A stretch of DNA of 64,000 nt from an uncultured Dehalococcoidia bacterium (GCA_964406605.1 CAYOSF010000014.1:5095-69094); one strand, 5' to 3'. Numbered from the stretch's first letter, positions 395 through 50,781 are shown. Notes: generated from the sequence alone by a model not told the origin. Made by a program: numbers and translations.

Positions 395-1627
395 CTATCC
401 GCCCGGCTCGTCCAGCAGCTCCCGCGCTCCCGACAGCGCGAGCACGTCGTTCGCCCCGTCCTCGATGAGCGCCGCCCGCGCGTCCCGCAGCAGTTGCTCC
501 ACCAGCACGCCCTTGGCCAGACCCATGCCCCCATGCAGTTGCACCGCGTCGGACGCCACCTCGAACGCGGCCTGCGTGCAGTAGACCTTGGCCGCCATCG
601 AGTAGTGATGCGTTGGCAGGCCGCTGGCCAGGCGCGCGTTCGCCTTGCGCGAGATAGCATCGGCCGCCTGGACCTTCATGAACATGTCGAACAGCTTGCG
701 CTGCACCAACTGATGCTGCGCGATGGGCACGCCGCCCTGCACCCGTTGCTGTGCGTAGGCCAGCGCCTCCTCGAACCCGGCACGGGTCACGCCGGCGAAC
801 GTCGCGCTCATCAGCGCGTTCGCTGCCGCAAAGATGTTGTTGGACAGGACCGAGTACGCCGGCGGCTCGATCAGCATGTAGTGCCCCGGTATGCGAACGT
901 CGTCGAAGAAGATCTCACCCTGGTTGAGGGCCCGCTGGCCGAGCTTGTTCAGCGGCTTGCCCTTCGAGACGCCCGGCAGGTTCGACGGCACCAGCGCGAT
1001 GCCGGTGCCGTTCATGCCCAAGGCCGGATCGACACACACGTACACCAGCGCGTGCGTGGCGATTGTCCCGTTGGACACCCAGGCGGATTTCTGGCCGTTG
1101 ATCACCCACTCGTCGCCGTCTTTGTGCGCCCTACAGCCGAGGTGCACGTCCGGACGGGCGTGCTCGCCCACCGGCAGGATGGTGTCGGAGCCGTGCTCCG
1201 GCTCCGTCCCCGCCCAGCAGCCGATGTGCTTCCCTTCGCGGTCCTCCACGAACGGCATCACCACCTCGCGCATCAGGTCAGGGTGACCTCTCATAGCTGC
1301 GAAGCGGAACGGCATGGTCGCGACGGACAGGCTGATGGCGAGACCGCCGCTGCCCCATCCCATCTCCTCAGAGACGACATACTGATCGCCGGGACCGAGG
1401 TTGCCGCCGCCCAGCTCCTCCGGGAACCCACGCAGATGGTACTCCGCCTGGTAGGCCGTCTTGAACACATCCCGCAGCCGGGATCCCGGGGCGATCACCT
1501 CGTCCGGGGAGAGCGCGTCCAGCTCCATGCTCGCCGGCCGGAGCACCTCTTCGGCGAAGCGATGCGTCTCCTGCTTGAGCGTGATCTGCTCAGGTGTCAG
1601 GTGGTAGGTGTCGGGCGCGTACGGCAT
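395..1627 (-). CDS. Acyl-CoA dehydrogenase
   Basis: CWAGTEPEHGSD, WVINGQKSAWVSNG, KLGQRALNQGEIFFDDVRIP, QRVQGGVPIAQHQLVQ, VQLHGGMG and IEDGAND motifs. Confidence 0.95.
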   Translation of the reverse strand: MPYAPDTYHLTPEQITLKQETHRFAEEVLRPASMELDALSPDEVIAPGSRLRDVFKTAYQAEYHLRGFPEELGGGNLGPGDQYVVSEEMGWGSGGLAISLSVATMPFRFAAMRGHPDLMREVVMPFVEDREGKHIGCWAGTEPEHGSDTILPVGEHARPDVHLGCRAHKDGDEWVINGQKSAWVSNGTIATHALVYVCVDPALGMNGTGIALVPSNLPGVSKGKPLNKLGQRALNQGEIFFDDVRIPGHYMLIEPPAYSVLSNNIFAAANALMSATFAGVTRAGFEEALAYAQQRVQGGVPIAQHQLVQRKLFDMFMKVQAADAISRKANARLASGLPTHHYSMAAKVYCTQAAFEVASDAVQLHGGMGLAKGVLVEQLLRDARAALIEDGANDVLALSGARELLDEPGG

Positions 1628-1658
1628 GGCCGTGACCTCCTCTCGATGAGAGCTCTCC

Positions 1659-2711
1659 TCAGACGCCGATCTCTACGACGATCCGCTCGGGGTCTCCCTC
1701 CTTCGTCCGCAGCAGCTCCAGGCCCGCTGCCACCTCATCGAGGCGGAGCCGATGTGAGATGGACGCACCGATGTCGATCTTGCCTTCCGCCTCGAGTCGC
1801 AGGACTTCGGCCAGGTCATCCACATGCGACGCGAAGCTTCCGAGCACGCTGAGCCCGCGCAGCCCAAAGGCGACCAGTGGCAGATCGATGCGCGGCGGCT
1901 GCATGCAGACACCAACCAGGACCAGCCTGCCGCTGGGGGCCAACGCGCTGACCGCGCTGGCGACCACCTCTGGCCTGCCGACGCATTCGAGCGCAAGGTC
2001 GGCGCCACCGCCTGTCGTCTCCTGTACGAGCGCCGCCGTATCCTCTCCCGGCACGGCGAGCACCGTGTCCGTCGCGCCACGCGCCGAGGCCCGTTTCAGC
2101 GCCGTCTCGGAGACGTCCACCGCCACCACCTGGGCGGCGCCCAGAACCGCCGCGAGACCCACCGCCTGGCTGCCGAGCCCTCCCACGCCGAAGACGGCGA
2201 CCCGGTCCCTGGGCGTGAGCCCGCCCCGACAGGTGAGCGCGTGGTAGGGCGTCGCCACACAGTCGGTCGCGACAGCCGCCGCCTCGAGCGACACAGCGTC
2301 CGGCACCCTCACGAGACAGTCGCTGGGCACCCGAATGGCCTCGGCGAACGCTCCATCGATGTGCAGGCCCGGCGCCCGGATCGACGCACAGCTCATGGGG
2401 TGTCCTGAAAGACAGTCTCGACACGTTCCACAGCCGCTCCCGAGATGGAGCGCCACGCGGTCCCCCGGCTCCCAATCCGCTACCCCCGGGCCGACCGATT
2501 CGATCACGCCTGCGGGCTCGTGTCCCATCGTGATGGGCATGGTCGGGAGCGGCACGTCTTCCATGAAGTGCAGATCCGAGCCACAGATCCCGCAGGCGGC
2601 CACCCGGACGACGACTTCGCCGCGACCGGGCTCGGGATAGGGAACCTCCTCTATTCGCACCGGCTTTCCGATGCCGTGGAGGCGTGCCGCAAGCATGGTC
2701 CGGCCGCTCAA
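1659..2711 (-). CDS. Zn-dependent alcohol dehydrogenase (MDR family)
   Basis: CGICGSDLH, GHE, structural Zn CGTCRDC..C, GVGGLG Rossmann motif. TTG start overlaps the upstream TGA; alternative ATG at 2696. Confidence 0.93.
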   Translation of the reverse strand: MSGRTMLAARLHGIGKPVRIEEVPYPEPGRGEVVVRVAACGICGSDLHFMEDVPLPTMPITMGHEPAGVIESVGPGVADWEPGDRVALHLGSGCGTCRDCLSGHPMSCASIRAPGLHIDGAFAEAIRVPSDCLVRVPDAVSLEAAAVATDCVATPYHALTCRGGLTPRDRVAVFGVGGLGSQAVGLAAVLGAAQVVAVDVSETALKRASARGATDTVLAVPGEDTAALVQETTGGGADLALECVGRPEVVASAVSALAPSGRLVLVGVCMQPPRIDLPLVAFGLRGLSVLGSFASHVDDLAEVLRLEAEGKIDIGASISHRLRLDEVAAGLELLRTKEGDPERIVVEIGV

Positions 2712-3445
2712 GCTACCTGCTCCTTCCGCGTGATCCGCTTCAGCACCTCGCCCGCGGGGATTGTGTTATCGGAGAGCATCACGATCATGGGGCCCTCGGT
2801 GTCGGGCACCAGGTCGGCGATGGGATCGAGGTCGGAGGGCTCACAGCGCACCGTTGCCCGGCCTACCTCCTGCTCGCGCGGAACGATCTCGATCTGGGTC
2901 TTCGTGATCTCCTCGATCGCGATGCCGCCAGCCGGGTCCGGGATCAGCTTGTAGTTGATCGCCGGGGCGCCAGCCGCCGGGCCTCGTGCAGCAGCCCCCT
3001 CGCCGGGCATCGGCCCCTGGACCGTGCCCTCAACCGTCAGGATCGTCTTGCCCCAGCGGGTCACCGATCCGTGGACGCGGTCGCCTTCGCGCTCCCACTC
3101 GACCTGCGCCAGCTTCTTGGGGAACCCAGCGATCTCGCGACCGGGGATCAGCGCCTCGTCCGTCGTCACGTAAATGTAGGGCACGTAGTTGCCCAGCGTG
3201 CCATCGACGCGAACGGGCACCAGCACGACGAGCTCCTTGAACGGGTGCGCGAACTCTGTTTGCGGGTAGCTGAGCAGCGTGATCAACCCCGACCCGTCGG
3301 CGGGCTCCATGCCCGGTGGCAGAATGCGCGCCACCGCTCCGGAACGCGGCGCGAACGGGAAGACGGCCATCCGCACCCCCTGCCACTTGTGAGGCAGCTC
3401 GGGGAAGACGGGCGCGGACCAGGGCATGCTGATGGGCTGAGTCAT
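2708..3445 (-). CDS. Acetoacetate decarboxylase family protein
   Basis: LPPGMEP, YVPYIYVTTDEALIPGREIAGFPKKLA (Schiff-base Lys motif) and INYKLIPD. Confidence 0.88.
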   Translation of the reverse strand: MTQPISMPWSAPVFPELPHKWQGVRMAVFPFAPRSGAVARILPPGMEPADGSGLITLLSYPQTEFAHPFKELVVLVPVRVDGTLGNYVPYIYVTTDEALIPGREIAGFPKKLAQVEWEREGDRVHGSVTRWGKTILTVEGTVQGPMPGEGAAARGPAAGAPAINYKLIPDPAGGIAIEEITKTQIEIVPREQEVGRATVRCEPSDLDPIADLVPDTEGPMIVMLSDNTIPAGEVLKRITRKEQVA

Positions 3446-3540
3446 GGATCATCCTCCTCGGACGGCTCGATGGCGACGCCTCCAGATGGGCTATCGCCAT
3501 GGCATTCCTCTCCCTCCACAGGCGATCTGCGTCGAGGAAA

Positions 3541-5100
3541 CTAGACGTTGTGGGCTTCGCGGTCCCAGGTGTTGGGACCCACTCCGTCGCCTTTCAGGCT
3601 GCTCTTCTGGACGCGATGAGTTCCCGTCTTCGGCAATGCGTCGCGGAACTCGATGTAGCGGGGAACCATGAACCGAGCCATCCGCTCCTCGCAGTGACGG
3701 ATCAGGTCCTCTGGCGCGAGCGTCTCGCCCTCCTTCAGCACCACGACGGCCATCACGTCGTCCTCACCGAGATCCGAGGGAACTCCGAACACCGCAGATT
3801 CTAGGATCGCTGGGTGGCTGTCGATCCCGCGCTCGACCTCCCAGGAGGAGATGTTCTCACCGCGGCGTCGCAGCGAATCCGTCTTGCGGTCCACGAAATA
3901 GAGATTGCCCTCTTCGTCGGCGTAGACAAGGTCGCCGGTGTGGAACCAGCCGTCTTGGATCTTGGCGTTGCTGGCCTCTTCGTTCTTGTAGTACTCCACA
4001 CGCCGGCGCCTGGCGTCGTCCACCTCGAAGAGGAGCTCACCGGGTTGCCCTGGAGCCACCTCGCGGCCCTGGTCATCGACGATGCGGATCGGGGTGGGCG
4101 GCTTGCCGATCGATCCCTTCGGCGAGTTCCCGATGTTGACGACGCTGAACCCACCGCCGTCGACGGCCGCATATCCCTCGACGATGTGCACCCCGAAGCG
4201 CTTCTCGAACTCGGCCCAGACCGAGGCGGGGCAGGCCGCGCTGATGACCAGGCGTACCGGGTTCTCCGCGTCGTTGGGCCGCTCTGGCTGCTTCATCAGG
4301 ATAGGAATCATGGCCCCCAGCGCGTTGAAGGTTGTGACTCCGTAGCGCCGGATCTCGTCCCAGAAGCGGCTGGCCGAGAAGCGGCGCGAGAGAGCCATCG
4401 GAAAGCCCATGGCGAGTGCCCGCATCGTAGTCAACTGAAGAGCATTGGCGTGGAAGAGCGGCAGACAGGTGTAGAGCACACTGTCGGGGTCCAGCGTCCC
4501 ACCGAGCAGCCGAACGCCGACGACATTCATCGCCCTGTAGCGGCTGACCACACCCTTGGGCGCGCCGGTCGTTCCCGAAGTGTACAGGATCACAGAGATC
4601 GCATCCTCTTCGATCTCTGCCTCGGGGTCCGCATCGGACGCCGCCATCAGCTCGGCGAGCGGCAGCCAGTCTTCCGGCACCGCTGCCTCGGCTGCATCGA
4701 TGATGATCCGGCTCAGCTTGGGGAGCGAGCTGAAAACAGCCTGGACCGCATCGACGTAGTCGGCGTGACAGACCAGAATGGACGAATCTGAGTGATCCAC
4801 CACGTGCCGCAGACCCTCTCCCTTAAGCGCGACATTCACCGGGACGGCATAAGCGCCGAGCTTCTGGACGGCAAAGTACACGAAGAGCCACTCGGGGCAG
4901 TTCGGCATCATGATCGCGACGCCGACGCCCGTCTTCACGCCGAGGGCGGCCAGACCGTTGGCGGCACGGTTCACCTGCCGGTTGAGTTCGGCAAAGCTGA
5001 TGACGCGATCTTCGAAGTAGAGGAAGGGCTTGTCGCCCAAGGCCTTTGCCTGCGCTTCGATGAGCGCTCTGAGCGTCGTGGGTTCGTCTGCCATCGGCAT
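3541..5100 (-). CDS. ATP-dependent acyl-CoA ligase (CaiC-like AMP-binding protein)
   Basis: YTSGTTGAPKG, LPLFHANA, WFHTGDL, DRKTDSLRRRGENIS and LPKTGTHRVQK. Start trimmed to MPMADEP (5100, or 5094). Confidence 0.93.
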   Translation of the reverse strand: MPMADEPTTLRALIEAQAKALGDKPFLYFEDRVISFAELNRQVNRAANGLAALGVKTGVGVAIMMPNCPEWLFVYFAVQKLGAYAVPVNVALKGEGLRHVVDHSDSSILVCHADYVDAVQAVFSSLPKLSRIIIDAAEAAVPEDWLPLAELMAASDADPEAEIEEDAISVILYTSGTTGAPKGVVSRYRAMNVVGVRLLGGTLDPDSVLYTCLPLFHANALQLTTMRALAMGFPMALSRRFSASRFWDEIRRYGVTTFNALGAMIPILMKQPERPNDAENPVRLVISAACPASVWAEFEKRFGVHIVEGYAAVDGGGFSVVNIGNSPKGSIGKPPTPIRIVDDQGREVAPGQPGELLFEVDDARRRRVEYYKNEEASNAKIQDGWFHTGDLVYADEEGNLYFVDRKTDSLRRRGENISSWEVERGIDSHPAILESAVFGVPSDLGEDDVMAVVVLKEGETLAPEDLIRHCEERMARFMVPRYIEFRDALPKTGTHRVQKSSLKGDGVGPNTWDREAHNV

Positions 5101-5126
5101 CACCTCAGCGTTCGTTGAATCTCTCT

Positions 5127-6359
5127 CTAGCGTGTGAGAATCGTTACGCACATTGAGGCCGCTCCGTTTCCCACCACGCCGCCTCCGTTGTGTGCCAGAG
5201 CGGCCGTCACGCCTTCGACCTGTCGCTCCCCACACCGCCCCTGCAACTGCTCCGTGAGCTCGACGATCTGGGCGACACCGGTGGCGCCCACGGGATGACC
5301 CTTGCGGAGCAGGCCGCCGGAGGTGTTCACGGGCACGCGGCCCCCAAGCCTTGTGGCTCCCTCTTCGATGAGCCTCCCCGACTCGCCGCTGCGGCACAGA
5401 CCGATCGACTCGTAGGCCAAAAGCTCGCCGATGGCGGAGGCGTCGTGGAGCTCGATGACTCCTATGTCCTCGGGACCGACACCGGCCTCCTCGCGTGCTT
5501 CTTCTGCGCACAGCCTGGCGGAATCCGACTCCCCCGGGTCGCCGTCCCACCCGGAGTGGAGAACGCTGGAAACCACGCGCACCGGGTTCTTGCAACCCAG
5601 TTCGCCCGCCTTGCGCTCGCTGACCACCACGGCGGCCGCCGCACCGTCGCCGATCGGTGAACACATCGGTCGCGTGAGTGGCTCGACGATCATCGGCGCT
5701 CCAAGCACGTCCTCGACGGTCAACACCTCGCGGAACTGGGCCCGCGGGTTGAGGCTCCCGTGCAGCGAGTTCTTCGCCGAGACTCCGGCCAACTGCTCCA
5801 CGGTCGTCCCGTACCGCGCCATGTGGGCCCGCGCAACGTTGGCATAGAAGTCCATGGCGACCGACCGCTTGTCACCTCCGTTGCCACTCCTGGGCGCCCC
5901 TCCGGCTGATGGTTCGTGCGCAGCAAACATGGCGAGCGCCGACTCGATCGCCTCGACATCCATTCCGCCTCGCAGCGCCAGGAAGGTCCTCTGCTTGTCT
6001 GGGTGGTAGAGCTTCTCCACGCCCAGAGCGAGGACCACATCGTAGCACCCGGTAGAGACCATGGCGCAGGCCTGATAGAACGCGGTGGAGCCGCCGCCAC
6101 AGGCGTTCTCGACATTGATGACGGGAATCCGCCCGATGCCCATCGGACGCAGGATGACCTGTCCGCGAATGCACTCCTGTCCGGTGATCAGACCGGCCAT
6201 CGCGTTGCTGACGTAGGCCGCCTCGATGGCGGCCGCACCGACGCCCGCGTCTTTGAGCGCCGCCCCGACTGCCTCCGCACCGAGGGCCTTGAGCCCCGTG
6301 TCCATGTGCTTCCCGAACCGGGTCATGCCGACGCCGGCCACGATCGCCTTCATTCGCAT
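5127..6359 (-). CDS. Thiolase family protein (SCP-x / lipid-transfer type)
   Basis: GVGMTRFGKH, NVENACGGGSTA, CSPIGDGAAA, ELHDA and NTSGGLLRKGHPVGATG. Start trimmed to MRMKAIV after an AGGAG SD. Confidence 0.92.
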   Translation of the reverse strand: MRMKAIVAGVGMTRFGKHMDTGLKALGAEAVGAALKDAGVGAAAIEAAYVSNAMAGLITGQECIRGQVILRPMGIGRIPVINVENACGGGSTAFYQACAMVSTGCYDVVLALGVEKLYHPDKQRTFLALRGGMDVEAIESALAMFAAHEPSAGGAPRSGNGGDKRSVAMDFYANVARAHMARYGTTVEQLAGVSAKNSLHGSLNPRAQFREVLTVEDVLGAPMIVEPLTRPMCSPIGDGAAAAVVVSERKAGELGCKNPVRVVSSVLHSGWDGDPGESDSARLCAEEAREEAGVGPEDIGVIELHDASAIGELLAYESIGLCRSGESGRLIEEGATRLGGRVPVNTSGGLLRKGHPVGATGVAQIVELTEQLQGRCGERQVEGVTAALAHNGGGVVGNGAASMCVTILTR

Positions 6360-6375
6360 GCCCTTCTCCTTTCTG

Positions 6376-9162
6376 CTAGCGCTCGGCACTCTCCATGCGG
6401 TCCCGCTCGCCCTCGAAGGGCTCACAGGAGACGTTGACGCAGCGGTCGAAAGGCACCGGCTGCCACTCGATGGGACTGTGGTAGAGGTGCCCGTAGTCTC
6501 CCGCCAGGTGCAGCCACTTCACCATGCCGGGCTCGACCTCGTTGGAGCCGTTGCCGCCCGGGAACAGGAAACCCTCGAAACCGTTGTAGACCGTGAGAGC
6601 GTCGGGACGCTGTGCGGGGCTGGTGCGAGCGGGCGCCACGAACTCGCCTACGTCGTTCCAGACCCGCACCAGCGCATCGTCAGCGATCCCGCTGTTGCGT
6701 GCGACGGCATCGTTGATCAGCACGAAGGGCTTGCCGCGATGCGTCTCCATCATCAACGGATTGGTCATGTTCATAGCATGGATGCTCCAGCGGGCGTGGC
6801 CGCCGGAGAGACGGAACGGGTGGTTGCCGCCCATCGAGGGTGGCTCCTTGTGACACGGCAGATCCTCCCCGGCTTCCCGGTACCAGGGGTGGTCGATCAG
6901 GAACTGGGCACGCCGGGTGAGCGTCGGATAAGGGTGACCCAGTTCGATGTGGTTGCGCAACGGTGAGTGCGTCTCGTTTCGCGGGAACGGAGAGGCGTTA
7001 GCCCTCAGCAGGGCGATGAAGGCCCAGTCATTGTAGTGGCTGTAGCCCTTCTCACGGAAGGTCTCGAGCGTGGTTCCAGGCGGCATGTTACCGAAAGCCA
7101 CCGAATCCGCGAGCATTTCCCGGGCGACGCTCTCACCGTCGATGAGCGTTCCCTTGAGCGTGAAGAGGTCCCACAGCTCGTCGTAGCGGCGCCATCCCCC
7201 GCTGCGGTGCTGGAAGCCCTCCAGACCGCGCTCTTTGGCCCGCTCGGCGATCTTCTTCAGGAGCCCACCGAGCGCCTCCCACTCGCCCCGGGACTCTCCG
7301 TAGGGCGGCACCACGGCATGAGACATGGACAGGATGAAGGGCCAGGGCGTCGGCATGCTGAAGGCGGCCTTCTCGTAGTGCTGAGTGGCGGGCAGCACGA
7401 TGTCTGCGTAGAGCGCCGTCTGCGACATGCGGTAGTCCATGCACACGATCTTGGTCAGCTTTGGCCAGAGATTGCGGAGCAGGGCGTTCTTGCCGCCCCG
7501 CGTCCGCCGGAGCGTGTTGCCCCCTACCTCGAGCAGTACACGCGGCGGCTTGGTGGCGGCGATCTCGGCCGCCGGGTCCCAGGCCCTCGACCCCACTGCC
7601 TCCTGATAGTACTGATCGAAGTCGCGCGGCATGCTCGCGTCGCTCCAGTCGCGGTTGTTCCAACGCTCGCGATAGCCGGCGTGCGTGTACCAGAAGAAGG
7701 CCGGCGGTAGCATCATGCCGCTGCCAACGGTGCGCATGATCACGCGGTCTGCCAGTTCACCGGTCAGAGTGGGATCCTGCTCTATCAACTGCTCGCGGAC
7801 AACCTGGGCACCTTTCCGCAGCGCCTTTCCCGCCTCGACACCGGCTTCGGTCTTGGCCATCGCTATCGAGCCGCCGTCGAACATGAACGAACACCAGCTA
7901 CCCACGCCGGCGCCCTTCTTGCCCCAGTTCCCGGTCAGCCCAAAGAGCAGCAGAATGGCCCGGTCCATGAGGTCACCGTGGTAGTACTTGGAGATGCCCA
8001 CCCCGACGCTCAAGCGGGTCTTTCGGGACGCCATCTTGCGCGCGAGCAGCCGAATGGCGTCGGGGTGTGCCTCGCAGATCTCGCTGGCTCGCTCCGGTGT
8101 GTAGTGCGCGTCCAGCATGCGTCGGAGACGCGCGAACAACGGTTCGACGGGGATCCGCCCGGCGTCGAGTGTCTCGACTTCCACTGTTCCCTCTGCAAGG
8201 GGCTCAAAATCCAGCAACAGATTGGCGGGATCGGCCGGAACCACACCCCTTTCGGGATGAAACTGGTAGAAGCGGTCGTCACGCCCATCCCGTTCGACGT
8301 GACCCTGGCGCAGGTACTGCCCGGTGTCGGTGCGGACCAGCAGCGAGAGATCGGTCTGCGAGGCGGCGAAGCTCCAGTCCACCAGTCCCTCGGATATGAC
8401 GACCTGGCAGGCGGCCAGAGCCAGGGCGGCATCGGTGCCGTGGCGCACCGGGATGTGGTAGTCGACATGGCTGTGCGAGGGGCTCACGTCCGTGGAGATC
8501 AGGAAGACTTCCGCGCCTCGGTATCGCGCCTCGGTCATGTAGTGGAACCACGGGACGTTCGTATACGCAGGGTTCGAGTGCCAGATCAGAATGAGATCGG
8601 AGTGGAAGGTGTCGTCGTTGGAATGCGCGAAGGAGGACTTGCCGAAGGTCTGCTGATAGCCGGCGTGGAAGTCATTGATGGTGGCGTTCACGTCCAAGAC
8701 CTGTCCGCCAAGAACGCCCACGAAGCGCGAGCTCGGCCCGGTGGTCACGATCTGGGGACTCAGCTCGTGCACGAGGGACTCGGGGCCGACCTCCTCGATG
8801 GCGTCGACGATGGCGTCGGCAACCTCGGTCAGCGCCGCGTCCCAGGAGATGCGTTCCCAGCGCCCCTCGCCGCGCTCACCGGCGCGGCGCAGCGGGTACT
8901 TGATCCGATCCGGCGCCTCCATCTCCAGACTCCAGGCCAGCCCCTTCTGACAGATCATCGGGTTCATGTCGGGGACGCCGGACTCGACCTGCTCGCGCAC
9001 GCCCGCGGCCTCCTCCCGCACCACCCTGCCATCCTTGACCAGCACGTAGATCGGGCAGTCTCCCGGCACACAGTTCACGCAGTGGGTGCCGAAATGCGCC
9101 TCGTCCCACTCCTGTTCGACACGGCTGCGCTGGCGCTCCTCCGTCCGGTTTGGGCGGCTCAT
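6376..9162 (-). CDS. Type II DMSO-reductase-family molybdoenzyme alpha subunit (EbdA/S25dA-like), paralog 1
   Basis: FS0 motif GTHCVNCVPGDC...NPMICQKG, Mo-ligand region DVNATINDF, KYYHGDL, GNWGKKG, YPTLTRRAQF, GHARWSIH. ATGA overlap with the beta-subunit stop; no twin-Arg leader. Confidence 0.93.
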   Translation of the reverse strand: MSRPNRTEERQRSRVEQEWDEAHFGTHCVNCVPGDCPIYVLVKDGRVVREEAAGVREQVESGVPDMNPMICQKGLAWSLEMEAPDRIKYPLRRAGERGEGRWERISWDAALTEVADAIVDAIEEVGPESLVHELSPQIVTTGPSSRFVGVLGGQVLDVNATINDFHAGYQQTFGKSSFAHSNDDTFHSDLILIWHSNPAYTNVPWFHYMTEARYRGAEVFLISTDVSPSHSHVDYHIPVRHGTDAALALAACQVVISEGLVDWSFAASQTDLSLLVRTDTGQYLRQGHVERDGRDDRFYQFHPERGVVPADPANLLLDFEPLAEGTVEVETLDAGRIPVEPLFARLRRMLDAHYTPERASEICEAHPDAIRLLARKMASRKTRLSVGVGISKYYHGDLMDRAILLLFGLTGNWGKKGAGVGSWCSFMFDGGSIAMAKTEAGVEAGKALRKGAQVVREQLIEQDPTLTGELADRVIMRTVGSGMMLPPAFFWYTHAGYRERWNNRDWSDASMPRDFDQYYQEAVGSRAWDPAAEIAATKPPRVLLEVGGNTLRRTRGGKNALLRNLWPKLTKIVCMDYRMSQTALYADIVLPATQHYEKAAFSMPTPWPFILSMSHAVVPPYGESRGEWEALGGLLKKIAERAKERGLEGFQHRSGGWRRYDELWDLFTLKGTLIDGESVAREMLADSVAFGNMPPGTTLETFREKGYSHYNDWAFIALLRANASPFPRNETHSPLRNHIELGHPYPTLTRRAQFLIDHPWYREAGEDLPCHKEPPSMGGNHPFRLSGGHARWSIHAMNMTNPLMMETHRGKPFVLINDAVARNSGIADDALVRVWNDVGEFVAPARTSPAQRPDALTVYNGFEGFLFPGGNGSNEVEPGMVKWLHLAGDYGHLYHSPIEWQPVPFDRCVNVSCEPFEGERDRMESAER

Positions 9163-10220
9163 GGCTGCTTTGCTCTTGCGGCCTCTACGACGGCGGGCTC
9201 CTTCCCGAAGGGGCCGAAGAGCGTCTTCCACTGATAGACGATCAGCGTGTCGAGCAGCTCCGAGCTGCCTCCGCCACGCGCCCGCTCGATCTCGCGGCGC
9301 AGCGTCGCCAGCGCCTCGTGCACGCCCGGCCCGAACAGCGACTCCAGATACTCCGGCGGGATGCGCATGGTCTCGGTATCGATCGAGCGGTCATCGCGCA
9401 GCCGGTAAGGCGAGAGGGGAGGTACATAGAAGACGTTGGGCTCGGTACCGACCTCCGGGTGGAGGGGCAGGGCGACCTTCCACTCGTACACCAGCCTGTG
9501 GATCGGGCCGCCCTCGTCGCCGAGCACGCCCACGAAGACGCACCGGCCCGGACAGTTTCGCGCGCAGACCGGGGCCACTCCCTCCTCGAGCCGTGGGAAA
9601 CAGAGATTGCAGTGCTGCGCCACGCCCCGCGCCTGGTTGAAGTAGACCTTCTTGTAGGGACACCCCCGCATGCACTCTCGCGACCCCTGGCAGAGGTCCT
9701 CGTCGCGGAGCACGATCCCGTCCTCCTCGCGCTTGTACATCGCCCCCGACGGACAGGCCTCGACACAGGCCGGGCGCGCGCAGTGGTTGCAGATGCGTGG
9801 CAGGTAGAAGAAGTAGGCGTTCGGGAACTCGCCCCCACCTTGGTCCTCGTCCCAGTTCGGACCCCAGGTGGGCGGACCGCCCTCGGCGGTGGTGGGCTTC
9901 AGGTGCACGGACTGGGCCTTGCCCCCAAAGAACACTTCCTCCTTGTTGAACTGCCAGCCGCCTCCGAACTCCTCCAGCGTCGGTTCGCGTCCCAGCACCA
10001 GCTCGCCGCCGCGATAGCCGCCTCCCATCTGCTCCCAGTCCCGCGGCGCGCCGCGACCGGGCATGGTGTTGACCGTGCACCACCACTGGTGCGCCTCGCC
10101 CTCCTCACGGGTCCAGAGCATCTTGCAGGCCACGCTGCAACTCTGGCATCCCATGCACTTGTTCAGGTCAAAGACCATCGCCACCTGGTTCGGCCTGCTT
10201 GCGGGCATTGTGGTGGTCAC
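9159..10220 (-). CDS. Fe-S beta subunit (NarH/EbdB-like) of the molybdoenzyme
   Basis: MVFDLNKCMGCQSCSVACK, YLPRICNHCARPACVEACP, CPYKKVYFN, CNLCFPR, LPLHPEVGTEPNVFYVPP. GTG start overlaps the TetR TGA. Confidence 0.93.
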   Translation of the reverse strand: MTTTMPASRPNQVAMVFDLNKCMGCQSCSVACKMLWTREEGEAHQWWCTVNTMPGRGAPRDWEQMGGGYRGGELVLGREPTLEEFGGGWQFNKEEVFFGGKAQSVHLKPTTAEGGPPTWGPNWDEDQGGGEFPNAYFFYLPRICNHCARPACVEACPSGAMYKREEDGIVLRDEDLCQGSRECMRGCPYKKVYFNQARGVAQHCNLCFPRLEEGVAPVCARNCPGRCVFVGVLGDEGGPIHRLVYEWKVALPLHPEVGTEPNVFYVPPLSPYRLRDDRSIDTETMRIPPEYLESLFGPGVHEALATLRREIERARGGGSSELLDTLIVYQWKTLFGPFGKEPAVVEAARAKQP

Positions 10221-10921
10221 CGCGCCCGCCCCTCGCTCGACCGCTCTCCCAGTCGGGGGTGTGCTCCGGTGGGACGCACCGTCGCACCCTCGTACACGGG
10301 CAGAGGCCGTCTGGCGATCTCGGCCGCTTCCTCCTCCGGCAGGCCAAGCAACCGCAGCAGGTTCCGAGCCAGCAGGCAATCCGCGTCGTCCGGCACTTCG
10401 CCCTTCAGCCGGGCCTGCATCACGCCGAGTATGGCTCCCGCGATCATGGCGAGCGTCGTTACCTCGTTGTCGCTGATGAAGCGGCCCGTGCTCAGCCCGA
10501 GACCCAGGTCTCGCAGCAGACGGTGGCCGAGCGCCGACCATAGCTCCTGGATGTAGATACCAGCACGCACGACGAACGAGCCCCAGACTGGGTCGTCGTC
10601 GACCATCCGGATGGTGAGCCGCGCGCTCGCGGCGAACACTTCGGCCACGTCGGTCATGTCCGCGGTCAGCCGGTCCAGGATCTGTCCGTGGGTCTCCACG
10701 GTCTCACTGACCACCGCCTGAAACAGATCCTCCCTCGAGTCGAAGTGGTTGTAGAAGGAGCCCACGCCGACATCGGCTTCCTCAGTTATCTCGCTGATCG
10801 GCACGGCCTCTATCGTCCCCCGGGAAGCGATGATCCGTCGCGCGGCAGCGACAAGGCGCCCCCGCGTCTCCCGACGCCGGCGTGCGCCGCGATCCATTCT
10901 CGCAACTGCTATCTGGGTCAT
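10217..10921 (-). CDS. TetR/AcrR family transcriptional regulator
   Basis: RRRRETRGRLVAAA...ISEITEEADVGVGSFYNHFDSREDL HTH; first gene of the operon. Confidence 0.93.
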   Translation of the reverse strand: MTQIAVARMDRGARRRRETRGRLVAAARRIIASRGTIEAVPISEITEEADVGVGSFYNHFDSREDLFQAVVSETVETHGQILDRLTADMTDVAEVFAASARLTIRMVDDDPVWGSFVVRAGIYIQELWSALGHRLLRDLGLGLSTGRFISDNEVTTLAMIAGAILGVMQARLKGEVPDDADCLLARNLLRLLGLPEEEAAEIARRPLPVYEGATVRPTGAHPRLGERSSEGRAR

Positions 10922-10947
10922 GCTCCTGCTCCGGTGCAGTCGACGGT

Positions 10948-10976
10948 ATTGTGACGGAATCTTCAAATATGTGCAA
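10948..10976 (-). promoter_or_regulatory. Sigma70-like promoter with overlapping imperfect palindrome (candidate TetR operator)
   Basis: Minus strand TTGCAC-N17-CACAAT. TGACG-GAAT-CTTCA (10952-10965) is one mismatch from a perfect palindrome. Confidence 0.5.
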
Positions 10977-11210
10977 GGCGTCATTTCTCGGTCGCTTCGG
11001 GATGACACGAGGGATCGGACTGGGACCAGAGGGCATCGATGGCCGGCTGCGACTTGTCGTTACTGGATGATGGGAGCCAGACGGGGCGGCATCACGCGGA
11101 ACGTCCATCGGCTGCCGTCTCGTTGATCCTCTCGCTCTCGCCCCCAATAATGGCAGGAACAAGGATGGCTGATGCGCCAAAAGGCGCCGACGAGCGAGGA
11201 AAGCACGACG

Positions 11211-13006: not shown

Positions 13007-13975
13007 TTACCCGGCGCCCGTCCCGCAGTCGTGGCGGTACGAGTCTATCACGTGAAGAATATCGTCAACGAGGATCTGCCCGCTCGGTGGACCCAGCCTC
13101 CACGGCTCCTTTGCCGTCTCCGGGATGGCGGTCCGGTCGTACTTCTCGTCGTAGCCCGGGTCACCCTCTCGCAGGAAGTAGTGGTTCACCAGAAGCAGCA
13201 CGTCGTCGATGCGATTCTTCCCGTCGTTCGTCGGGTTGAAGTAGTCCCACGGGTTGTGCGGGTCACGTCGGCCGCCGAGTTTCTCGTCGAAGCCATTCTC
13301 ATTCACGTCCGGGCAGCCATCGTTGTCGTCGTCCGGATCGGCGCTGTTGGGCACCGTATCCCCGTCCGTATCGCCGTCCGGCGCCTTGGTGGGCATCGGC
13401 GTGGCCGTGGGTCTCGGCGTCCCATCCTCGCACTTGATGACCAGCACATCCGGACCGGACTCTACCTGGGTCGATCCCTTGTCGTCGATGACCAGCGTGT
13501 CAGCTGTGGAGTGTGTCAGGCTGACGCTACCATCTGCATCACATCTGAAGCTGCCTGTCGCGACGACCCCCGTGTACGTGGAGAAGGGTTCGCCAATGCC
13601 GATCGAGCAGCCCACCGACTCCCAATCAGGGCCGTAAGCATTCGCACAAAACAGGCCGTCCGGCCACACCATGTCAATCAGGCCGTTGGGCGTCACACCG
13701 TCGTAGGCAACGGTAACAGCCACGGCTTCGTATGCCCCATTCGGCAGAGCCGAGACACCCTCGAGAATCACCTTGACAGTGAAGTCCGTATCCACAGGGA
13801 TGTAGCACTTGTCGTAGCCGCGGGAGGTGTCACAATCCCCGACGGCTATCGAGAAGTCCACGGCCTCCGTTTGGGCCTCGATGGCGCTCCTGTGTCCCCA
13901 GGTGAAGACCACCACAACCATCACAGCAACGGCCATCACCGCGCCCAGAACCACCAGGTTTCGTCGCGATCGCAT
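13007..13975 (-). CDS. Secreted surface protein with C-terminal Ca-binding dockerin-like (flexitail-type) domain
   Basis: Signal peptide, beta-rich domain, PTATP linker, DTDGDTVPNSADPDDDNDGCPD, GGRRDPHNPWDYFNPTNDGKNRIDD, GPPSGQILVDDIL..HDC. Confidence 0.7.
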   Translation of the reverse strand: MRSRRNLVVLGAVMAVAVMVVVVFTWGHRSAIEAQTEAVDFSIAVGDCDTSRGYDKCYIPVDTDFTVKVILEGVSALPNGAYEAVAVTVAYDGVTPNGLIDMVWPDGLFCANAYGPDWESVGCSIGIGEPFSTYTGVVATGSFRCDADGSVSLTHSTADTLVIDDKGSTQVESGPDVLVIKCEDGTPRPTATPMPTKAPDGDTDGDTVPNSADPDDDNDGCPDVNENGFDEKLGGRRDPHNPWDYFNPTNDGKNRIDDVLLLVNHYFLREGDPGYDEKYDRTAIPETAKEPWRLGPPSGQILVDDILHVIDSYRHDCGTGAG

Positions 13976-14168
13976 GCCACACCTCCCGCCTGCGGTCGGT
14001 GATGGGCTGCCCGCCGTGCGGGACACGCGCCCGCCACTGACCACCAGCTCCGTACGCGGCGATCCTAGCGTGCCAGGGACGGCTTGTCAACAAGCACTTG
14101 TTGCCTACCGGCACAGCTCGTAACGGCAGCCTCGAGGCCGAAGCCTGTGGCTATAGGACAGGATGGCG

Positions 14169-17510: not shown

Positions 17511-20363
17511 TCAGGCTGAGCCCGTCTGCGCGACAAGTGCTCGACTGCCTGATGCCGGGCGAGGCCGCCTGTTCTCTCCCAGCTTCTGGACGTCCACGCG
17601 CACCGCCCGGTCCACCGGCGTCGGCTGCCACTGCAGAGGCCAGTAGCGTAGGTGGCCGTAGCCGCCCGCCAGGTGCAGCCACTTCACCATCCCCGGCTCC
17701 ACGTCCATCGAGCCCCGCCAGCCCCGGAACTGGTACGGGTCCCAGCCGTTGTAGCAGATCACCTGCCCCGGCCTGACCGAAGGCGATAGCTTCACCGGTA
17801 CCAGGAAGTCCCCCGCATCGTTGTAGACCCGCACCTCCTCGTCGTCCTCGATGCCCCGCGCCTGCGCGTCCACCGGGCTCATCACCAGGTGCGGCCGTCC
17901 CCGGTGCGTCTGCAGCAGCATCCGGTTCGCGATGTTGATGGAGTGGATGCTCCAGCGGTTGTGGCCTGAGGTCATGGCGAAGGGGTAGTCGCCGCCCATC
18001 TTCGGGTTCTCCTTGTGGGTGGGGAACCCCTCGCCCGCCTCCAGGAACCAGGGGTGGTCGATGTAGAACTGGGCGCGGCGGGTGAGCGTCGGGTACGGCA
18101 GCTTCTTCTGGGTGTGCCAGGTCGAGTGGACGAATGTCTCGTCCGGCTTGATGTCGCTGGCTTGATTCGCGTCCATTACGGAAAGACCCAGGTGCGTGAA
18201 GCGCCGGTATCCATCTCTTTTCAGCGTTGACAGCGTCGTGTCCTCCGGCAGGGATCCGGCGGCAACACCGTCGCGCACCATCTCGCCGGCCATCCGCTCC
18301 TCCGTGGCAAGGGCGCCCCCTAGCGTGAGTTGGTCGTGCAGTCCCCGCAACGAACGGGCATTGCCCTGGCCGTCGGCGTACTCCTTGAGACCTCGCGCTC
18401 GTGCGCGCTGTTCCAGCTTCGTGGCCAGGAGCAGTGATATCTCCCACTCGGTCTTCGCATCGCCCGGCGGCTTCGCCGACTGCTCCGTGTGGATGAGCAA
18501 CAGCATGTGGGGCGTCGACATGTGGAAACCCGACGACTCGTACTCGTTGGCTACAGGCAGCACGATGTCCGACCAGCGCGCCGTGGTGCTCATGCGCCAA
18601 TCGAGTGTCACCACTTTGTTCAGCTTCGGCCACAGGTGGCGCAGCAGTTGTGTCCCTCCCCCGCGCACCCGCCGCAGGGTGTTGCCGGCGACATTGAACA
18701 GCACGCGCGGGCGGGTCTTCGGCGCGGGCCGGGCGACGCCTTGCCACCACCCCTTGTCCACCGCCTCCCGGAAGTACTCGTCGAAGGGACGCTTCATGGC
18801 GGGGTCGCCCCACTCGCGGTTGTTCCATCGCTCGCGGTAGCCGCAGTGGTGGTACCAGAAGAATGCCGGCGGGATGAGGAGGAGGCTCCCCGCAGACGCG
18901 GCCCGGCAGGCCATCTCGATGCCCGCCATCTCCTCGGTCCAGGTGGTATCGGCGCTCTTCACTTCGGCCAGCATGTTCGCGTAGACGCCCAGGACCGTCT
19001 TCGTCGCGCGCCGGCCCGGCCGGCCCTTCCGGGCCACGATGCCGGGCCCGTCGAAGAAACCCACGGACCAGCAGCCCACTCCTGTCCCCTTGCGCCCCCA
19101 GTTTCCGGTCAACCCGAGGAGCAGGAGGATCGACCGAAGCATCAGGTCCGCGTGGTAGTACTTGAGCGACGTGCCGCCCGCCCAGACCTGCGTCCGCTTC
19201 TGGGCCGCCTTACGCCCCAGCGACCGTATCGCATCCGGATGAACGCCGCAGATCTTCGAGGCCTTCTCCGGTGTGTAGCTGCGGTTCAGATGCTGCCGCA
19301 GCAGCTCGAACGCAGACGCGACCGTCACCCGCGAGCCGTCCTTCAGACGCACGCGGTGCCGTCCCTCCAAAGCCGGCTTCACCTTCCCCCACCGCAGCGT
19401 TCCCTTTGGTGCGGCCGCCAGGCGGCGCTTCTCCGTGTCCCAGGCATAGAACTGCTCGTCCGAGCCGCCTTCCTTGAGATCGGATTCCCGCAGGAATCGC
19501 CCGGTATCGAGACGCACGAGCAGCGGGAGGTCCGTCTGCTCCTTCACGAACCGCTCGTTATAGATTCCCTCCTCGATGATCACCTGCGAGGCGGCGAGCG
19601 CCCAGGCCGCGTCGGTCCCCGTGCGCACCGGGTAGTAGTAATCGGCCTGGATGTGCGATGGGCTGCAGTCCGGGGCGAACAGCACAACCTCTGTCCCCTG
19701 GTAGCGGGACTCGACGGTGTAGTGCGACGTCGCGATGACGGTGTAGACCGGATTGGCCTGGAATATGATCAGAAGCTCCGTATGAAAGGCATCGTCCAGG
19801 CTGCTGCAGACGTTGAACTTGCCGAAGGTGAGGTAGATGCCCGGGCTGAAATCGTTGATCTCCGCGTTGACGTCCGTCGTCAGGCCGCCGAGCATGTTCA
19901 TCAGCCGCCCGTGGCCGGAGCCGGTCCACGTGCCGCCCTCGGCGCCCATCGCGGTGATGATCGACTCAGGCCCGACCTCCTCGATGGCGTCGAGCAGCGC
20001 GTCTGCGACCTCGGTGACCGCCGTGTCCCAGGAGATCTCCTCCCACTTCCCTTCACCCCGCTTGCCCACGCGTCGGAGTGGGTGAAGCACCCGCTCCTGG
20101 CCGTACAGAGTGCGGCTCCAGGCCACGCCCTTCTGACAGCCCATCGGGTTGTAGTCCGGCACGCCCTCCTCGATCATCTTGAACGTGCCGGCCTGCTCCT
20201 CCCGCACGACCTTGCCGTCGCGGACATAGACGCGCATCGGGCAGTTGCCGGGGTAGCAGTCGACGCAATGGGTCCCCCAGTGGACCTCATCCCAGGACCA
20301 CCTGTCACGGTAGGCATCCGTCCACGACCCCGCTGCACCTCGCCCTCTGACTCGCGGTTTCAT
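17511..20363 (-). CDS. Type II DMSO-reductase-family molybdoenzyme alpha subunit (EbdA/S25dA-like), paralog 2, orphan
   Basis: WGTHCVDCYPGNC...YNPMGCQKG, DVNAEINDF, KYYHADL, YPTLTRRAQFYIDH, GHNRWSIH. Start trimmed to MKPRVRG after GAGGAGG; no Tat motif. Confidence 0.93.
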   Translation of the reverse strand: MKPRVRGRGAAGSWTDAYRDRWSWDEVHWGTHCVDCYPGNCPMRVYVRDGKVVREEQAGTFKMIEEGVPDYNPMGCQKGVAWSRTLYGQERVLHPLRRVGKRGEGKWEEISWDTAVTEVADALLDAIEEVGPESIITAMGAEGGTWTGSGHGRLMNMLGGLTTDVNAEINDFSPGIYLTFGKFNVCSSLDDAFHTELLIIFQANPVYTVIATSHYTVESRYQGTEVVLFAPDCSPSHIQADYYYPVRTGTDAAWALAASQVIIEEGIYNERFVKEQTDLPLLVRLDTGRFLRESDLKEGGSDEQFYAWDTEKRRLAAAPKGTLRWGKVKPALEGRHRVRLKDGSRVTVASAFELLRQHLNRSYTPEKASKICGVHPDAIRSLGRKAAQKRTQVWAGGTSLKYYHADLMLRSILLLLGLTGNWGRKGTGVGCWSVGFFDGPGIVARKGRPGRRATKTVLGVYANMLAEVKSADTTWTEEMAGIEMACRAASAGSLLLIPPAFFWYHHCGYRERWNNREWGDPAMKRPFDEYFREAVDKGWWQGVARPAPKTRPRVLFNVAGNTLRRVRGGGTQLLRHLWPKLNKVVTLDWRMSTTARWSDIVLPVANEYESSGFHMSTPHMLLLIHTEQSAKPPGDAKTEWEISLLLATKLEQRARARGLKEYADGQGNARSLRGLHDQLTLGGALATEERMAGEMVRDGVAAGSLPEDTTLSTLKRDGYRRFTHLGLSVMDANQASDIKPDETFVHSTWHTQKKLPYPTLTRRAQFYIDHPWFLEAGEGFPTHKENPKMGGDYPFAMTSGHNRWSIHSINIANRMLLQTHRGRPHLVMSPVDAQARGIEDDEEVRVYNDAGDFLVPVKLSPSVRPGQVICYNGWDPYQFRGWRGSMDVEPGMVKWLHLAGGYGHLRYWPLQWQPTPVDRAVRVDVQKLGENRRPRPASGSRALVAQTGSA

Positions 20364-33119: not shown

Positions 33120-33259
33120 GCGCACCTCCAACGGCCGATGGCTCCGAGCGCCCTCTTTCAAGACGCGGACATGGTATCACCGCAGGCCCGCCAGCGGTGG
33201 GGACACGGCGGCAACGGACGCCAAGCGGCCAACCTGGCGTTTCTCCGGCAGATCCTGGA

Positions 33260-47274: not shown

Positions 47275-47301
47275 GAGGTACTCCGTTCCAGAACGGACGA
47301 A

Positions 47302-49421: not shown

Positions 49422-49646
49422 GACGAACGCACCTCCGAAGTCATCATGGGATACAGATTGACTATTGCGTGCGGCGTGGCGGGTGTCAAATGGAGCGGCG
49501 GCTCCGCTTGTCCGCCCTTTCCAGCCCCTGATAGAATGGAGCCCCTAGAGCGGTCGGGCTGAGCCCCACCGAAGCAGCCCTGGAGCGCGCATCCCCGTGA
49601 TCCCTTCCCGTACAAACGCCCGCCGGCCCTGCCACGAGGGCAAGCC

Positions 49647-50762: not shown

Positions 50763-50781
50763 GCCCGGAAAGGAGACGGAG

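Follow-up and report, generated by a model that had tools for sequence, protein, structure and literature searches.

A TetR-linked operon around a predicted cytoplasmic, ethylbenzene dehydrogenase-like molybdenum enzyme in an uncultured Dehalococcoidia bacterium

Introduction

Ethylbenzene dehydrogenase (EBDH)-like hydroxylases are, to our knowledge, the main known enzymes for the O2-independent hydroxylation of hydrocarbons and of the side chains of sterols. The characterised ones that we know of are all located in the periplasm, consist of alpha, beta and gamma subunits, and stem from a small number of specialists that denitrify or reduce sulfate. Here we describe an operon that encodes an EBDH-like alpha-beta pair without a twin-arginine translocation (Tat) signal. 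It is located in a stretch of 64,000 nucleotides from an uncultured Dehalococcoidia bacterium (GCA_964406605.1, CAYOSF010000014.1:5095-69094; about 66% G+C), which we call the window. The genes of the alpha subunit (alpha1) and the beta subunit share the operon with genes for a TetR-family regulator, a thiolase, a coenzyme A (CoA) ligase, an acetoacetate-decarboxylase-family (ADC) protein, a zinc-dependent alcohol dehydrogenase (ADH), and an acyl-CoA dehydrogenase (ACAD).

The best solved relative of both subunits is EbdABC of Aromatoleum aromaticum (PDB 2IVF). The window enzyme shares its cofactor ligands, but lacks a Tat signal, the residue His192, and, within the window, genes for a gamma heme subunit and an EbdD-type chaperone. 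Its context also differs, with TetR and CoA-dependent genes taking the place of the ped, apc and bal genes. The pathway that these genes serve, anaerobic ethylbenzene degradation (Ebd, Ped, Apc, Bal and a thiolase), resembles the operon in its classes of enzymes, namely molybdenum hydroxylase, alcohol dehydrogenase, CoA ligase and thiolase. It differs from the window system in using an alcohol dehydrogenase of the short-chain type (SDR) rather than the medium-chain dehydrogenase/reductase (MDR) type, in having an ATP-dependent acetophenone carboxylase instead of an ADC-family protein and ACAD, and in that the window system is predicted to be cytoplasmic and has a gene set that is modular across relatives.

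The products of the S25DH enzymes undergo CoA activation and beta-oxidation downstream, analogous to what the window operon appears to encode. The steroid C25 dehydrogenases S25DH1-4 of Sterolibacterium denitrificans are EBDH-like molybdenum hydroxylases, with many alphas and fewer beta-gamma sets, and S25DH has been produced in Thauera aromatica (excerpts of PMC6016249); similarly, there are three alpha genes and one beta gene in the 64 kb considered here. In contrast to the window enzyme, S25DH is described as an alpha-beta-gamma protein that depends on SdhD as its chaperone and has a Tat signal directing it to the periplasm (excerpts of PMC6016249). CmdABC (p-cymene dehydrogenase) and AhyABC (putatively a hydroxylase of the C2 methylene of alkanes) belong to the same hydroxylase branch (excerpts of PMC6016249 and PMC10100899). 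They are likened to the window enzyme by description, outside our tree, and differ from the Tat-less window enzyme in being listed as periplasmic, as are all non-Nar enzymes of the Asp type in a review of the superfamily (PMC10100899).

In metagenome surveys, Dehalococcoidia proteins with more than 40% identity have been labelled as CmdA- or AhyA-like by identity alone, and the survey papers contain no statement on a missing Tat signal, a missing gamma subunit or the window operon (PMC6472368). The proteins so labelled may include members of the Tat-less family. In our full-text literature searches and the paper excerpts consulted, we found neither a Tat-less EBDH-like clade nor the window operon described. 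What appears to be new is a known catalytic scaffold in a different predicted compartment, with a different subunit make-up and in a different pathway context.

Results

The alpha and beta subunits resemble EbdA and EbdB

Among solved structures, alpha1 matched EbdA (2ivf_A) best, with 627 bits over the full length, followed by the perchlorate reductase PcrA (403 bits) and NarG (149 bits). The beta subunit matched EbdB (2ivf_B) with 406 bits, again over the full length, and all four cysteine groups could be aligned (residues 7-339). Alpha1 was 37% identical over 914 residues to P0316, which we took as EbdA based on its NCBIfam equivalog score (2266.6 bits). Identity was 31% to ClrA of Ideonella and to NarG of Haloferax mediterranei, and 26% to NarG of E. 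coli in a partial alignment; ClrA and both NarG references were taken from annotated records. This likeness, together with the tree position beside the EbdA lineage reported below, bears out the original prediction, made from the sequence by a model, of an EBDH-like alpha-beta pair of the type II dimethyl sulfoxide (DMSO) reductase family.

The ligands of the FS0 iron-sulfur cluster in alpha1 (His27, Cys31, Cys36 and Cys71) were invariant in 13 aligned family members. Asp164 and Lys392 are the alignment equivalents of the molybdenum ligand Asp223 and of Lys450 in EbdA, and both were kept in 68 of 68 members of the Tat-less clade. With the Asp ligand, the His/Cys3 FS0 site and the four cysteine groups of beta, the cofactor-binding motifs of an EBDH-type alpha-beta scaffold are intact. 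We also considered active-site residues as a signature of function and rejected them, as the Asp223 and Lys450 equivalents proved non-discriminating and His192 was limited to the EbdA clade.

The enzyme has no export signal and several alphas per beta

The N-terminus of alpha1 comprises 26 residues ahead of the FS0 His, without twin-arginine motif or hydrophobic stretch. The N-termini of P0121, P0122 and P0124, representatives of the Tat-less clade, were similar and had no Tat signal either. By contrast, the EbdA equivalog P0316 bears a Tat signal (HRRDFLKRSGAAVLSLSL / HRRDFLKRSGAAVLSL). Tat-type signals are recognisable in this genome, since the gene next to the operon (11172-12935) has a clear twin-arginine lipoprotein-type signal SRRRLLRAAGTGAAGLTVAAAC (SRRRLL...AAC). 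The alpha subunit is therefore Tat-less, as had been claimed, and the missing signal leads us to place alpha-beta in the cytoplasm.

Family proteins used as tblastn queries found no gamma-like or NarJ-like gene in the 64-kb window at E <= 1e-4, and Pfam did not find EB_dh or Nitrate_red_del among the 43 window open reading frames (ORFs) scanned. EB_dh gamma genes and NarJ-like genes were also absent within 10 kb of the TetR-beta-alpha relatives at every locus examined. A gamma or NarJ-type gene could be present elsewhere in the source genome.

Deeper members of the Tat-less clade had a different make-up. Immediately ahead of beta, they carried EB_dh-family genes of 190-240 aa (loci L039, L041, L042, L045, L060, L061), and in L010 and L014 an EB_dh gene adjoined a Tat-less alpha of more distant kinship. 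The copy in L060 scored 40 bits on Pfam (cut-off 33) and had no signal peptide. A NarJ-like gene directly followed beta in six loci (L039, L041, L042, L045, L054, L060), and a CopD-like membrane protein was often encoded further downstream. Such regions lie, for example, at 644-3233 in L041, 12767-15098 in L060, about 857-3650 in L039, and 14896-15501 in L010. Signal-less EB_dh, NarJ-like and CopD-like genes could encode a membrane-linked version of the enzyme at the cytoplasmic face. They suggest that the clade is cytoplasmic as a whole, yet not always gamma-less. The claim that there is no heme gamma subunit therefore held for the operon and its near relatives, but not as a family trait.

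The window contains three alpha genes and one beta gene. Alpha2 was 48% identical to alpha1 and 42% identical to the EbdA equivalog P0316, and the N-terminus of alpha3 had no twin-arginine signal. Neither alpha2 nor alpha3 was adjoined by a beta, gamma or accessory catabolic gene. The neighbours were an MFS transporter gene and a weak GNAT-like ORF for alpha2, and an ABC-F ATPase gene and a gene for a helix-turn-helix regulator for alpha3. Tandem alphas with a single beta were also found in L021, L060, L072 and L041. Sterolibacterium denitrificans likewise has eight alpha paralogues but fewer beta-gamma sets, which the alphas are presumed to have in common (excerpts of PMC6016249). By analogy, and given the excess of alpha over beta, the single beta probably also serves the orphan alpha2 and alpha3, which would provide for several substrate specificities.

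The Tat-less family is large and branches beside EbdA

A word-indexed protein search yielded 976 relatives (clusters at 90% identity) among 7997 scored candidates, with 120 matches listed. Among the matches listed, identity ranged from 48 to 100%, and full-length proteins had about 905-970 aa, the length expected without a signal peptide. The matches listed in this and further protein searches (120 each) had only generic public names, for instance "DMSO reductase family type II enzyme molybdopterin subunit" or "molybdopterin-dependent oxidoreductase", apart from one automatic "dimethylsulfide dehydrogenase". Every match listed with an organism name was labelled as a metagenome-assembled genome (MAG), many were nameless, and no cultured isolate was found among them. 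An exhaustive search of 50%-identity representatives gave 7204 matches at E <= 0.001 and 485 at E <= 1e-30.

A genome scan detected 422 relatives in species-representative genomes, of which 80 were retained, representing 78 loci. All 78 came from MAGs or uncultured-genome assemblies, and 76 carried an alpha match. According to the record titles, the loci were from Chloroflexota/Dehalococcoidia, Myxococcota or "delta proteobacterium", Binatia, Acidimicrobiia, and others.

For the phylogeny, we combined 88 of the 110 alpha ORFs of the loci and the window (those of at least 850 aa) with 35 full-length representatives, 14 EbdA-side proteins and the three annotated references. Of these 140 rows, 19 were at least 88% identical to another and were removed, leaving 121. 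FastTree (LG+gamma, 931 columns) was run on all 121 sequences and rooted on E. coli NarG, and a quick IQ-TREE run (LG+G4, 950 columns) covered 64 of the 121 rows, chosen by hand so that every clade was represented.

In the FastTree phylogeny, the three window alphas fell into a single Tat-less clade (support 0.99, or 0.97 including P0122). The Tat-less and the Tat-bearing EbdA clades lay inside an EBDH-like super-clade with support of 0.998-1.0, and the earliest branches were those of the halophile NarG, of the ClrA group and of further groups that bear a Tat signal. In the IQ-TREE phylogeny, the Tat-less clade had an SH-aLRT of 95, its pairing with the EbdA clade as sister one of 93, and the clade around both one of 99.

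The operon comprises eight tightly spaced genes

All eight genes that had been predicted for positions 395-10921 are indeed encoded by the minus strand, and Pfam supports the family of each (Table 1). The predicted span was exact, extending from the stop codon of the ACAD gene to the ATG of the TetR gene. From TetR to ACAD, the intergenic gaps are 8, -4, 16, 26, 95, -4 and 31 nt, in agreement with the tight spacing and the occasional start/stop overlap foreseen originally. The beta stop and the alpha1 start share the sequence ATGA, and the ADC stop overlaps the ADH start by 4 nt, provided that ADH starts at TTG. From these overlaps, the beta-alpha and ADC-ADH pairs are predicted to be translationally coupled. 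The ADH belongs to the MDR and not the SDR type, as expected, and no hydantoinase/oxoprolinase-type protein was found among the window ORFs scanned, in line with the expected absence of an ATP-dependent acetophenone carboxylase.

Table 1. Position of the operon genes, the upstream intergenic region and the additional alpha genes in the window. Pfam scores of all eight operon gene products are above the gathering cut-off. Mo-bisPGD, molybdenum bis-pyranopterin guanine dinucleotide.
Feature	Position	Strand	Description
TetR-family regulator	10217..10921	-	234 aa; ATG start; operon gene 1; Pfam TetR_N 43 bits, TetR_C_40 94.5 bits
Fe-S beta subunit	9159..10208	-	349 aa; Pfam Fer4_11
Mo-bisPGD alpha subunit (alpha1)	6376..9162	-	928 aa; Pfam Molybdopterin, Molydop_binding
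SCP2/SCPx-type thiolase	5127..6359	-	410 aa; Pfam Thiolase_C_1 131 bits, Thiolase_N 58.5 bits
Acyl-CoA ligase	3541..5100	-	519 aa; Pfam AMP-binding 241.5 bits, AMP-binding_C
ADC-family protein	2708..3445	-	245 aa; Pfam ADC 150 bits
MDR Zn-dependent ADH	1659..2711	-	350 aa from TTG; alternative ATG at 2696; Pfam ADH_N 101 bits, ADH_zinc_N 83 bits
ACAD	395..1627	-	410 aa; Pfam Acyl-CoA_dh N, M and C domains
Intergenic region upstream of TetR	10922..11171		common to the divergent solute-binding-protein gene; presumed promoter/operator, by position only
Orphan Tat-less alpha paralogue (alpha2)	17511..20363	-	950 aa; Pfam Molybdopterin, Molydop_binding
Orphan Tat-less alpha paralogue (alpha3)	about 30333..33161	-	start codon uncertain; Pfam Molybdopterin, Molydop_binding

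A search for a TetR operator in 10880-11200 gave no inverted repeats of 10 nt or longer. A scan for promoters and terminators remained at chance level, and the sole sigma-70-like match upstream of the operon points to the plus-strand gene.

Accessory enzymes belong to generic families

The best solved relatives of the thiolase were BbsB (7pxp, 221 bits) and, matching along the whole length, SCP2-thiolase type-1 (6hsj, 220 bits). SCP2-type thiolases handle branched 3-ketoacyl-CoAs. No gene for a DUF35 partner adjoins the thiolase gene. The CoA ligase scored 494 bits on NCBIfam PRK06155 (cut-off 722). Its best PDB match, oxalate-CoA ligase, reached only 207 bits and hence did not permit a specific assignment; steroid-22-oyl and steroid-24-oyl CoA synthetase models matched below threshold (237 and 210 bits; cut-offs 900 and 750). 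For the ADH, the best PDB match was the Geobacillus enzyme 1rjw (188 bits), and for the ACAD it was 1ukw (152 bits). In the ACAD, an Asp aligns where the YEG motif usually has its catalytic Glu (IEDGAND, compared to IYEGTNE in 1ukw). Solved relatives were also considered as a clue to the substrates of the accessory enzymes, and were discarded for this purpose as all matches were generic.

The ADC-family protein matched the best solved ADC (3c8w) with 46 bits and PRK02265 with 52 bits (cut-off 150), and it appears distant from true decarboxylases by these scores. In an ESM Atlas search, it found only clusters named "acetoacetate decarboxylase family". A comparison of 17 family copies showed that at least 80% retain the first Lys of the motif GREIAGFPKK and that all share one Glu, whereas the second Lys of the motif is not conserved. 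We take the first Lys of FPKK to be the Schiff-base lysine, with the adjacent Lys beside it. The ADC fold covers decarboxylases as well as aldolase-dehydratases, and either chemistry is therefore possible for this protein.

Parts of the operon recur in relatives

In order to compare gene contexts, we searched the 78 loci with the eight window proteins (tblastn, query coverage above 50%) and counted matches within 7 kb of the focal alpha. ACAD was the commonest neighbour of the family alphas, with 42 of 76 loci, or 29 of the 44 loci that have at least 5 kb on both sides of alpha. The corresponding counts were 27 of 76 (16 of 44) for beta, 21 (12) for ADC, 17 (12) for ADH, 16 (13) for the thiolase, 14 (9) for TetR, and 11 (8) for the CoA ligase. 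At least one of the accessory genes (thiolase, CoA ligase, ADC, ADH or ACAD) was near alpha in 46 of 76 loci (32 of 44). In the 14 loci with TetR, its homologues were 48-77% identical and lay directly upstream of beta-alpha. The operon arrangement is thus more than chance, since its parts recur across phyla.

Two modules could be distinguished. The first, TetR-beta-alpha-thiolase-ACAD-CoA ligase-ADH, occurred in L004 and L036, and in shorter form in L001, L071 and L078. The second, TetR-beta-alpha-ADC-ACAD-ADH, occurred in L007, L015, L016, L020, L022 and L023, and without ADH in L024. ADC-ACAD pairs also adjoined alpha without an adjacent beta in L027, L030, L034, L037 and others, mostly in records of Acidimicrobiia. 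The window operon is a mix of the two, in which the ADC-ADH pair accompanies the set of thiolase and CoA ligase.

The closest locus, L001, is also assigned to Dehalococcoidia by its record title. It shared 87% DNA identity with the window across the 5.9 kb of TetR-beta-alpha-thiolase (L001 8113-13975 and window 5127-10987), with flanks unrelated to those of the window. This core must therefore have moved or been rearranged, and the comparison suggests a transfer or rearrangement of the cluster. Within L001, 15208-15282 corresponded to window positions 3599-3674 (76 nt, 83% identity to the 3' end of the CoA ligase gene), and this stretch may be a remnant of the CoA ligase gene.

Other contexts were noted as well. 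In L010 (about 2107-12772), and likewise in L011 and L014, beta-alpha lies behind genes for a 2-hydroxyglutaryl-CoA dehydratase D-component (HGD-D) family protein, an amidohydrolase_2 protein, a ferredoxin-like protein, and a second molybdopterin oxidoreductase with an Fe4S4 domain. The HGD-D family also includes subunits of benzoyl-CoA reductases. A gene for a nitroreductase-family protein of about 260-285 aa lies beside ACAD, CoA ligase or thiolase genes in L035, L039, L041, L045, L057, L062, L065 and L072; the alphas of these loci are 45-53% identical to alpha1, and the window operon does not contain this gene.

Surroundings of the operon

The gene at 11172-12935 is divergent from the operon on the plus strand and codes for a family-5 solute-binding protein without adjoining permease genes. 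None of the 78 related loci contains a homologue of it or of the ORFs at 3-320 and 16030-17241, and these three ORFs therefore lie outside the conserved system. At 13007-14044, the minus strand encodes a 345-aa protein, predicted to be secreted or membrane-anchored, with an Asp-rich stretch (DGDTDGDT..DPDDDNDGCPD) that resembles a calcium-binding repeat; this protein had no significant Pfam match. Further away, there is a riboflavin operon at 49563-54018 (ribD, a Band 7 gene, riboflavin synthase, ribBA and lumazine synthase), and nadA lies in 46066-47301. These housekeeping genes indicate that the region is chromosomal and no obvious mobile island.

Discussion

We propose, with moderate confidence, that the operon is a TetR-controlled catabolic unit, in which a cytoplasmic, water-dependent alpha-beta hydroxylase of the EBDH type feeds alcohol oxidation, CoA activation and beta-oxidation. 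The alpha subunit would oxidise an activated C-H bond (at a sub-terminal methylene, a tertiary or an allylic carbon) of a hydrophobic compound with an alkyl chain inside the cell, possibly as free acid, ketone or CoA thioester. The hydroxyl group would be supplied by water at the molybdenum center, and two electrons would pass via FS0 and the four beta clusters to a cytoplasmic or membrane acceptor. The Zn-ADH would turn the new alcohol into a carbonyl, and the recurrence of ADH beside alpha fits an alcohol product. The Schiff-base enzyme of the ADC family would then cleave or decarboxylate a beta-carbonyl product, and CoA ligase, ACAD and SCP2-type thiolase would carry the resulting acid through beta-oxidation. 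TetR might sense the substrate or an intermediate, and one beta might serve several alphas of different specificity.

Several observations weigh against this proposal, and the electron acceptor is its weakest point, as none is evident in the window. An acceptor at the level of menaquinone would be a poor sink for the electrons of hydrocarbon hydroxylation. In known EBDH-like enzymes, electrons flow via the gamma heme to a high-potential cytochrome c (excerpts of PMC6153880).

The assignment to curated families is distant as well. The best model for alpha1, NCBIfam TIGR03479 (type II DMSO reductase alpha), gave 751 bits, below the cut-off of 984.75, and the EbdA equivalog model NF042978 gave 665.5 bits (cut-off 2000). 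Beta reached 447.1 bits on TIGR03478 (cut-off 480.7) and 410 bits on the EbdB model (cut-off 740). The models thus identify the nearest families, yet neither subunit is a trusted member of any curated equivalog. Among the active-site residues, the Asp223 equivalent was also present in 13 of 13 reductase rows and the Lys450 equivalent in 9 of 13, so that their conservation carries no information on the direction of the reaction or on hydroxylase as opposed to reductase function. EbdA His192 was found in 14 of 14 members of the EbdA clade, in none of the 68 members of the Tat-less clade, and in none of the 11 other Tat-bearing EBDH-like rows.

Phylogenetic placement is hence the line of evidence from which hydroxylase activity of alpha-beta is predicted. 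In the FastTree phylogeny, support for the Tat-less clade next to the EbdA clade was only 0.61. EbdA was the only labelled hydroxylase in the trees, accompanied by ClrA, halophile NarG and E. coli NarG, with S25dA, CmdA, AhyA, SerA, DdhA and PcrA unlabelled. The alpha phylogeny called for along with the original prediction thus puts alpha1 on the EbdA side and not with ClrA or either NarG, with EbdA as its sole hydroxylase landmark.

Gene contexts add to these reservations. All eight genes together were found in none of the 76 relatives, and conservation of the gene set accordingly applies to its parts, which recur in several phyla, but not to the whole. In L010, L011 and L014, moreover, alphas 72% identical to alpha1 occur in quite different contexts, which makes an inference of the substrate from the neighbours weak.

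Alternative functions were weighed against this proposal. The operon would also suit hydroxylation of a methyl group, after the fashion of p-cymene dehydrogenase or steroid C26 hydroxylation, such that a branched chain of isoprenoid or sterol-like type gains a primary alcohol at a methyl that is allylic, benzylic or terminal. ADH and an aldehyde dehydrogenase encoded elsewhere would yield the acid, CoA ligase, ACAD and SCP2-type thiolase would shorten the chain, and the ADC-family protein would be an auxiliary lyase or decarboxylase. MDR Zn-ADH, CoA ligase, ACAD and SCP2-type thiolase indeed form the recurring set of L004 and L036, shorter in L001, L071 and L078. The full-length match of the thiolase to SCP2-thiolase type-1, the sub-threshold steroid-CoA synthetase matches of the ligase and the S25DH-like pattern of several alphas per beta point in the same direction, as does the report of two molybdenum hydroxylases acting on a sterol side chain (PMC7411048). 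Nevertheless, the operon contains no aldehyde dehydrogenase, enoyl-CoA hydratase or 3-hydroxyacyl-CoA dehydrogenase gene, the steroid-CoA ligase scores are far under their cut-offs, and no steroid-ring degradation genes were seen among the window ORFs scanned. We consider this methyl route a serious, though unlikely, alternative.

The absence of a visible equivalent of the gamma heme and cytochrome c leaves room for a cytoplasmic molybdenum enzyme that is redox-neutral (hydratase or hydroxyl transfer) or reductive (dehydroxylating), with beta clusters that have no external partner. Pyrogallol transhydroxylase and acetylene hydratase are precedents for cytoplasmic alpha-beta enzymes of the DMSO reductase family without net redox chemistry. 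The lack of a gamma, cytochrome or obvious acceptor gene in the window and within 10 kb of the TetR-beta-alpha relatives is what such an enzyme would predict, and EbdA His192 is missing. Deeper Tat-less members, however, have an EB_dh gamma-like subunit together with a CopD-like membrane protein, which implies real electron transfer. As beta retains all four cluster motifs and the closest characterised relative is an oxidising hydroxylase, we judge a redox-neutral or reductive role to be distinctly unlikely.

The original prediction had envisaged an analogue of the ethylbenzene route, in which a methylene is hydroxylated to a secondary alcohol and oxidised by ADH to a methyl ketone, the ADC-family enzyme, running in reverse, carboxylates the ketone to a beta-keto acid, and CoA ligase and thiolase complete activation and cleavage. 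All the types of enzyme needed do sit in one operon, ADC and ADH are predicted to be translationally coupled, and the ADC-family protein retains the Schiff-base Lys and the conserved Glu. This five-step scheme gained no support from the comparison with relatives, where the ADC gene seldom co-occurs with the thiolase and CoA ligase genes. Among 15 ADC loci with an alpha at least 60% identical to alpha1, 14 had no CoA ligase (the exception is L027), and the thiolase-type loci L004, L036, L001, L071 and L078 had no ADC. Separate modules that rarely co-occur speak against a single, fixed linear route with all of these enzymes. The scheme has no role for ACAD, the commonest neighbour, and the second Lys of FPKK is not kept across family copies. 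The idea of the ADC-family enzyme as a carboxylase found no supporting evidence and is energetically unfavourable, since carboxylating a ketone is strongly uphill unless ATP is spent. With parts from different modules, ACAD left out and unfavourable energetics, we regard the rebuilt ethylbenzene route as highly unlikely.

A cytoplasmic oxyanion reductase or oxidase (of the nitrate, nitrite, chlorate or selenate type, respiratory or assimilatory) that lies beside lipid-catabolic genes by chance has a close to negligible probability, even though alpha1 shares the type II DMSO reductase family and the Asp ligand with Nar, Nxr, Clr and Ser and one homologue with 59% identity is auto-named dimethylsulfide dehydrogenase, because identity to E. 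coli NarG, halophile NarG and ClrA is only 26-31%, the family branches apart from them, the linkage to TetR, ACAD, ADH and ADC recurs across phyla, and neither a NarI-type or other membrane anchor nor nitrogen- or chlorine-cycle genes were seen among the window ORFs scanned. NarGHI does resemble the window enzyme in being a type II-related, Asp-ligated molybdenum enzyme of the cytoplasmic side without Tat signal (judging from the E. coli NarG N-terminus), but NarG is the outgroup of our trees, has about 1250 aa, and comes with the NarI membrane anchor and the NarJ chaperone.

To return to the proposed catabolic hydroxylase, a broader version of it is conceivable, if rather doubtful: a large family of cytoplasmic, gamma-less molybdenum hydroxylases of the EBDH type that use water to place oxygen in C-H bonds of lipid-like or CoA-bound substrates inside the cell, pass electrons to a new partner, and have interchangeable alphas for each beta. 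The new partner might be, for example, a nearby flavoprotein of the ACAD type together with an electron-transfer flavoprotein (ETF)/quinone system.

The Tat-less, gamma-less clade in CoA-dependent operons raises questions about its substrates, its electron route and its maturation without a chaperone of its own. It is also large, with the 422 relatives in species-representative genomes and the 976 protein clusters at 90% identity mentioned above. Surveys that use "AhyA/CmdA/EbdA-like" genes as evidence for anaerobic activation of hydrocarbons may include this family. The enzymes could be of use as regioselective, oxygen-free hydroxylation catalysts. If the broader version is true, the gamma-less family would be an oxygen-independent counterpart of P450-style hydroxylation in MAGs of Chloroflexota, Myxococcota, Binatia and Acidimicrobiia, and would change the view of how recalcitrant alkyl and isoprenoid carbon is broken down in soils and sediments.

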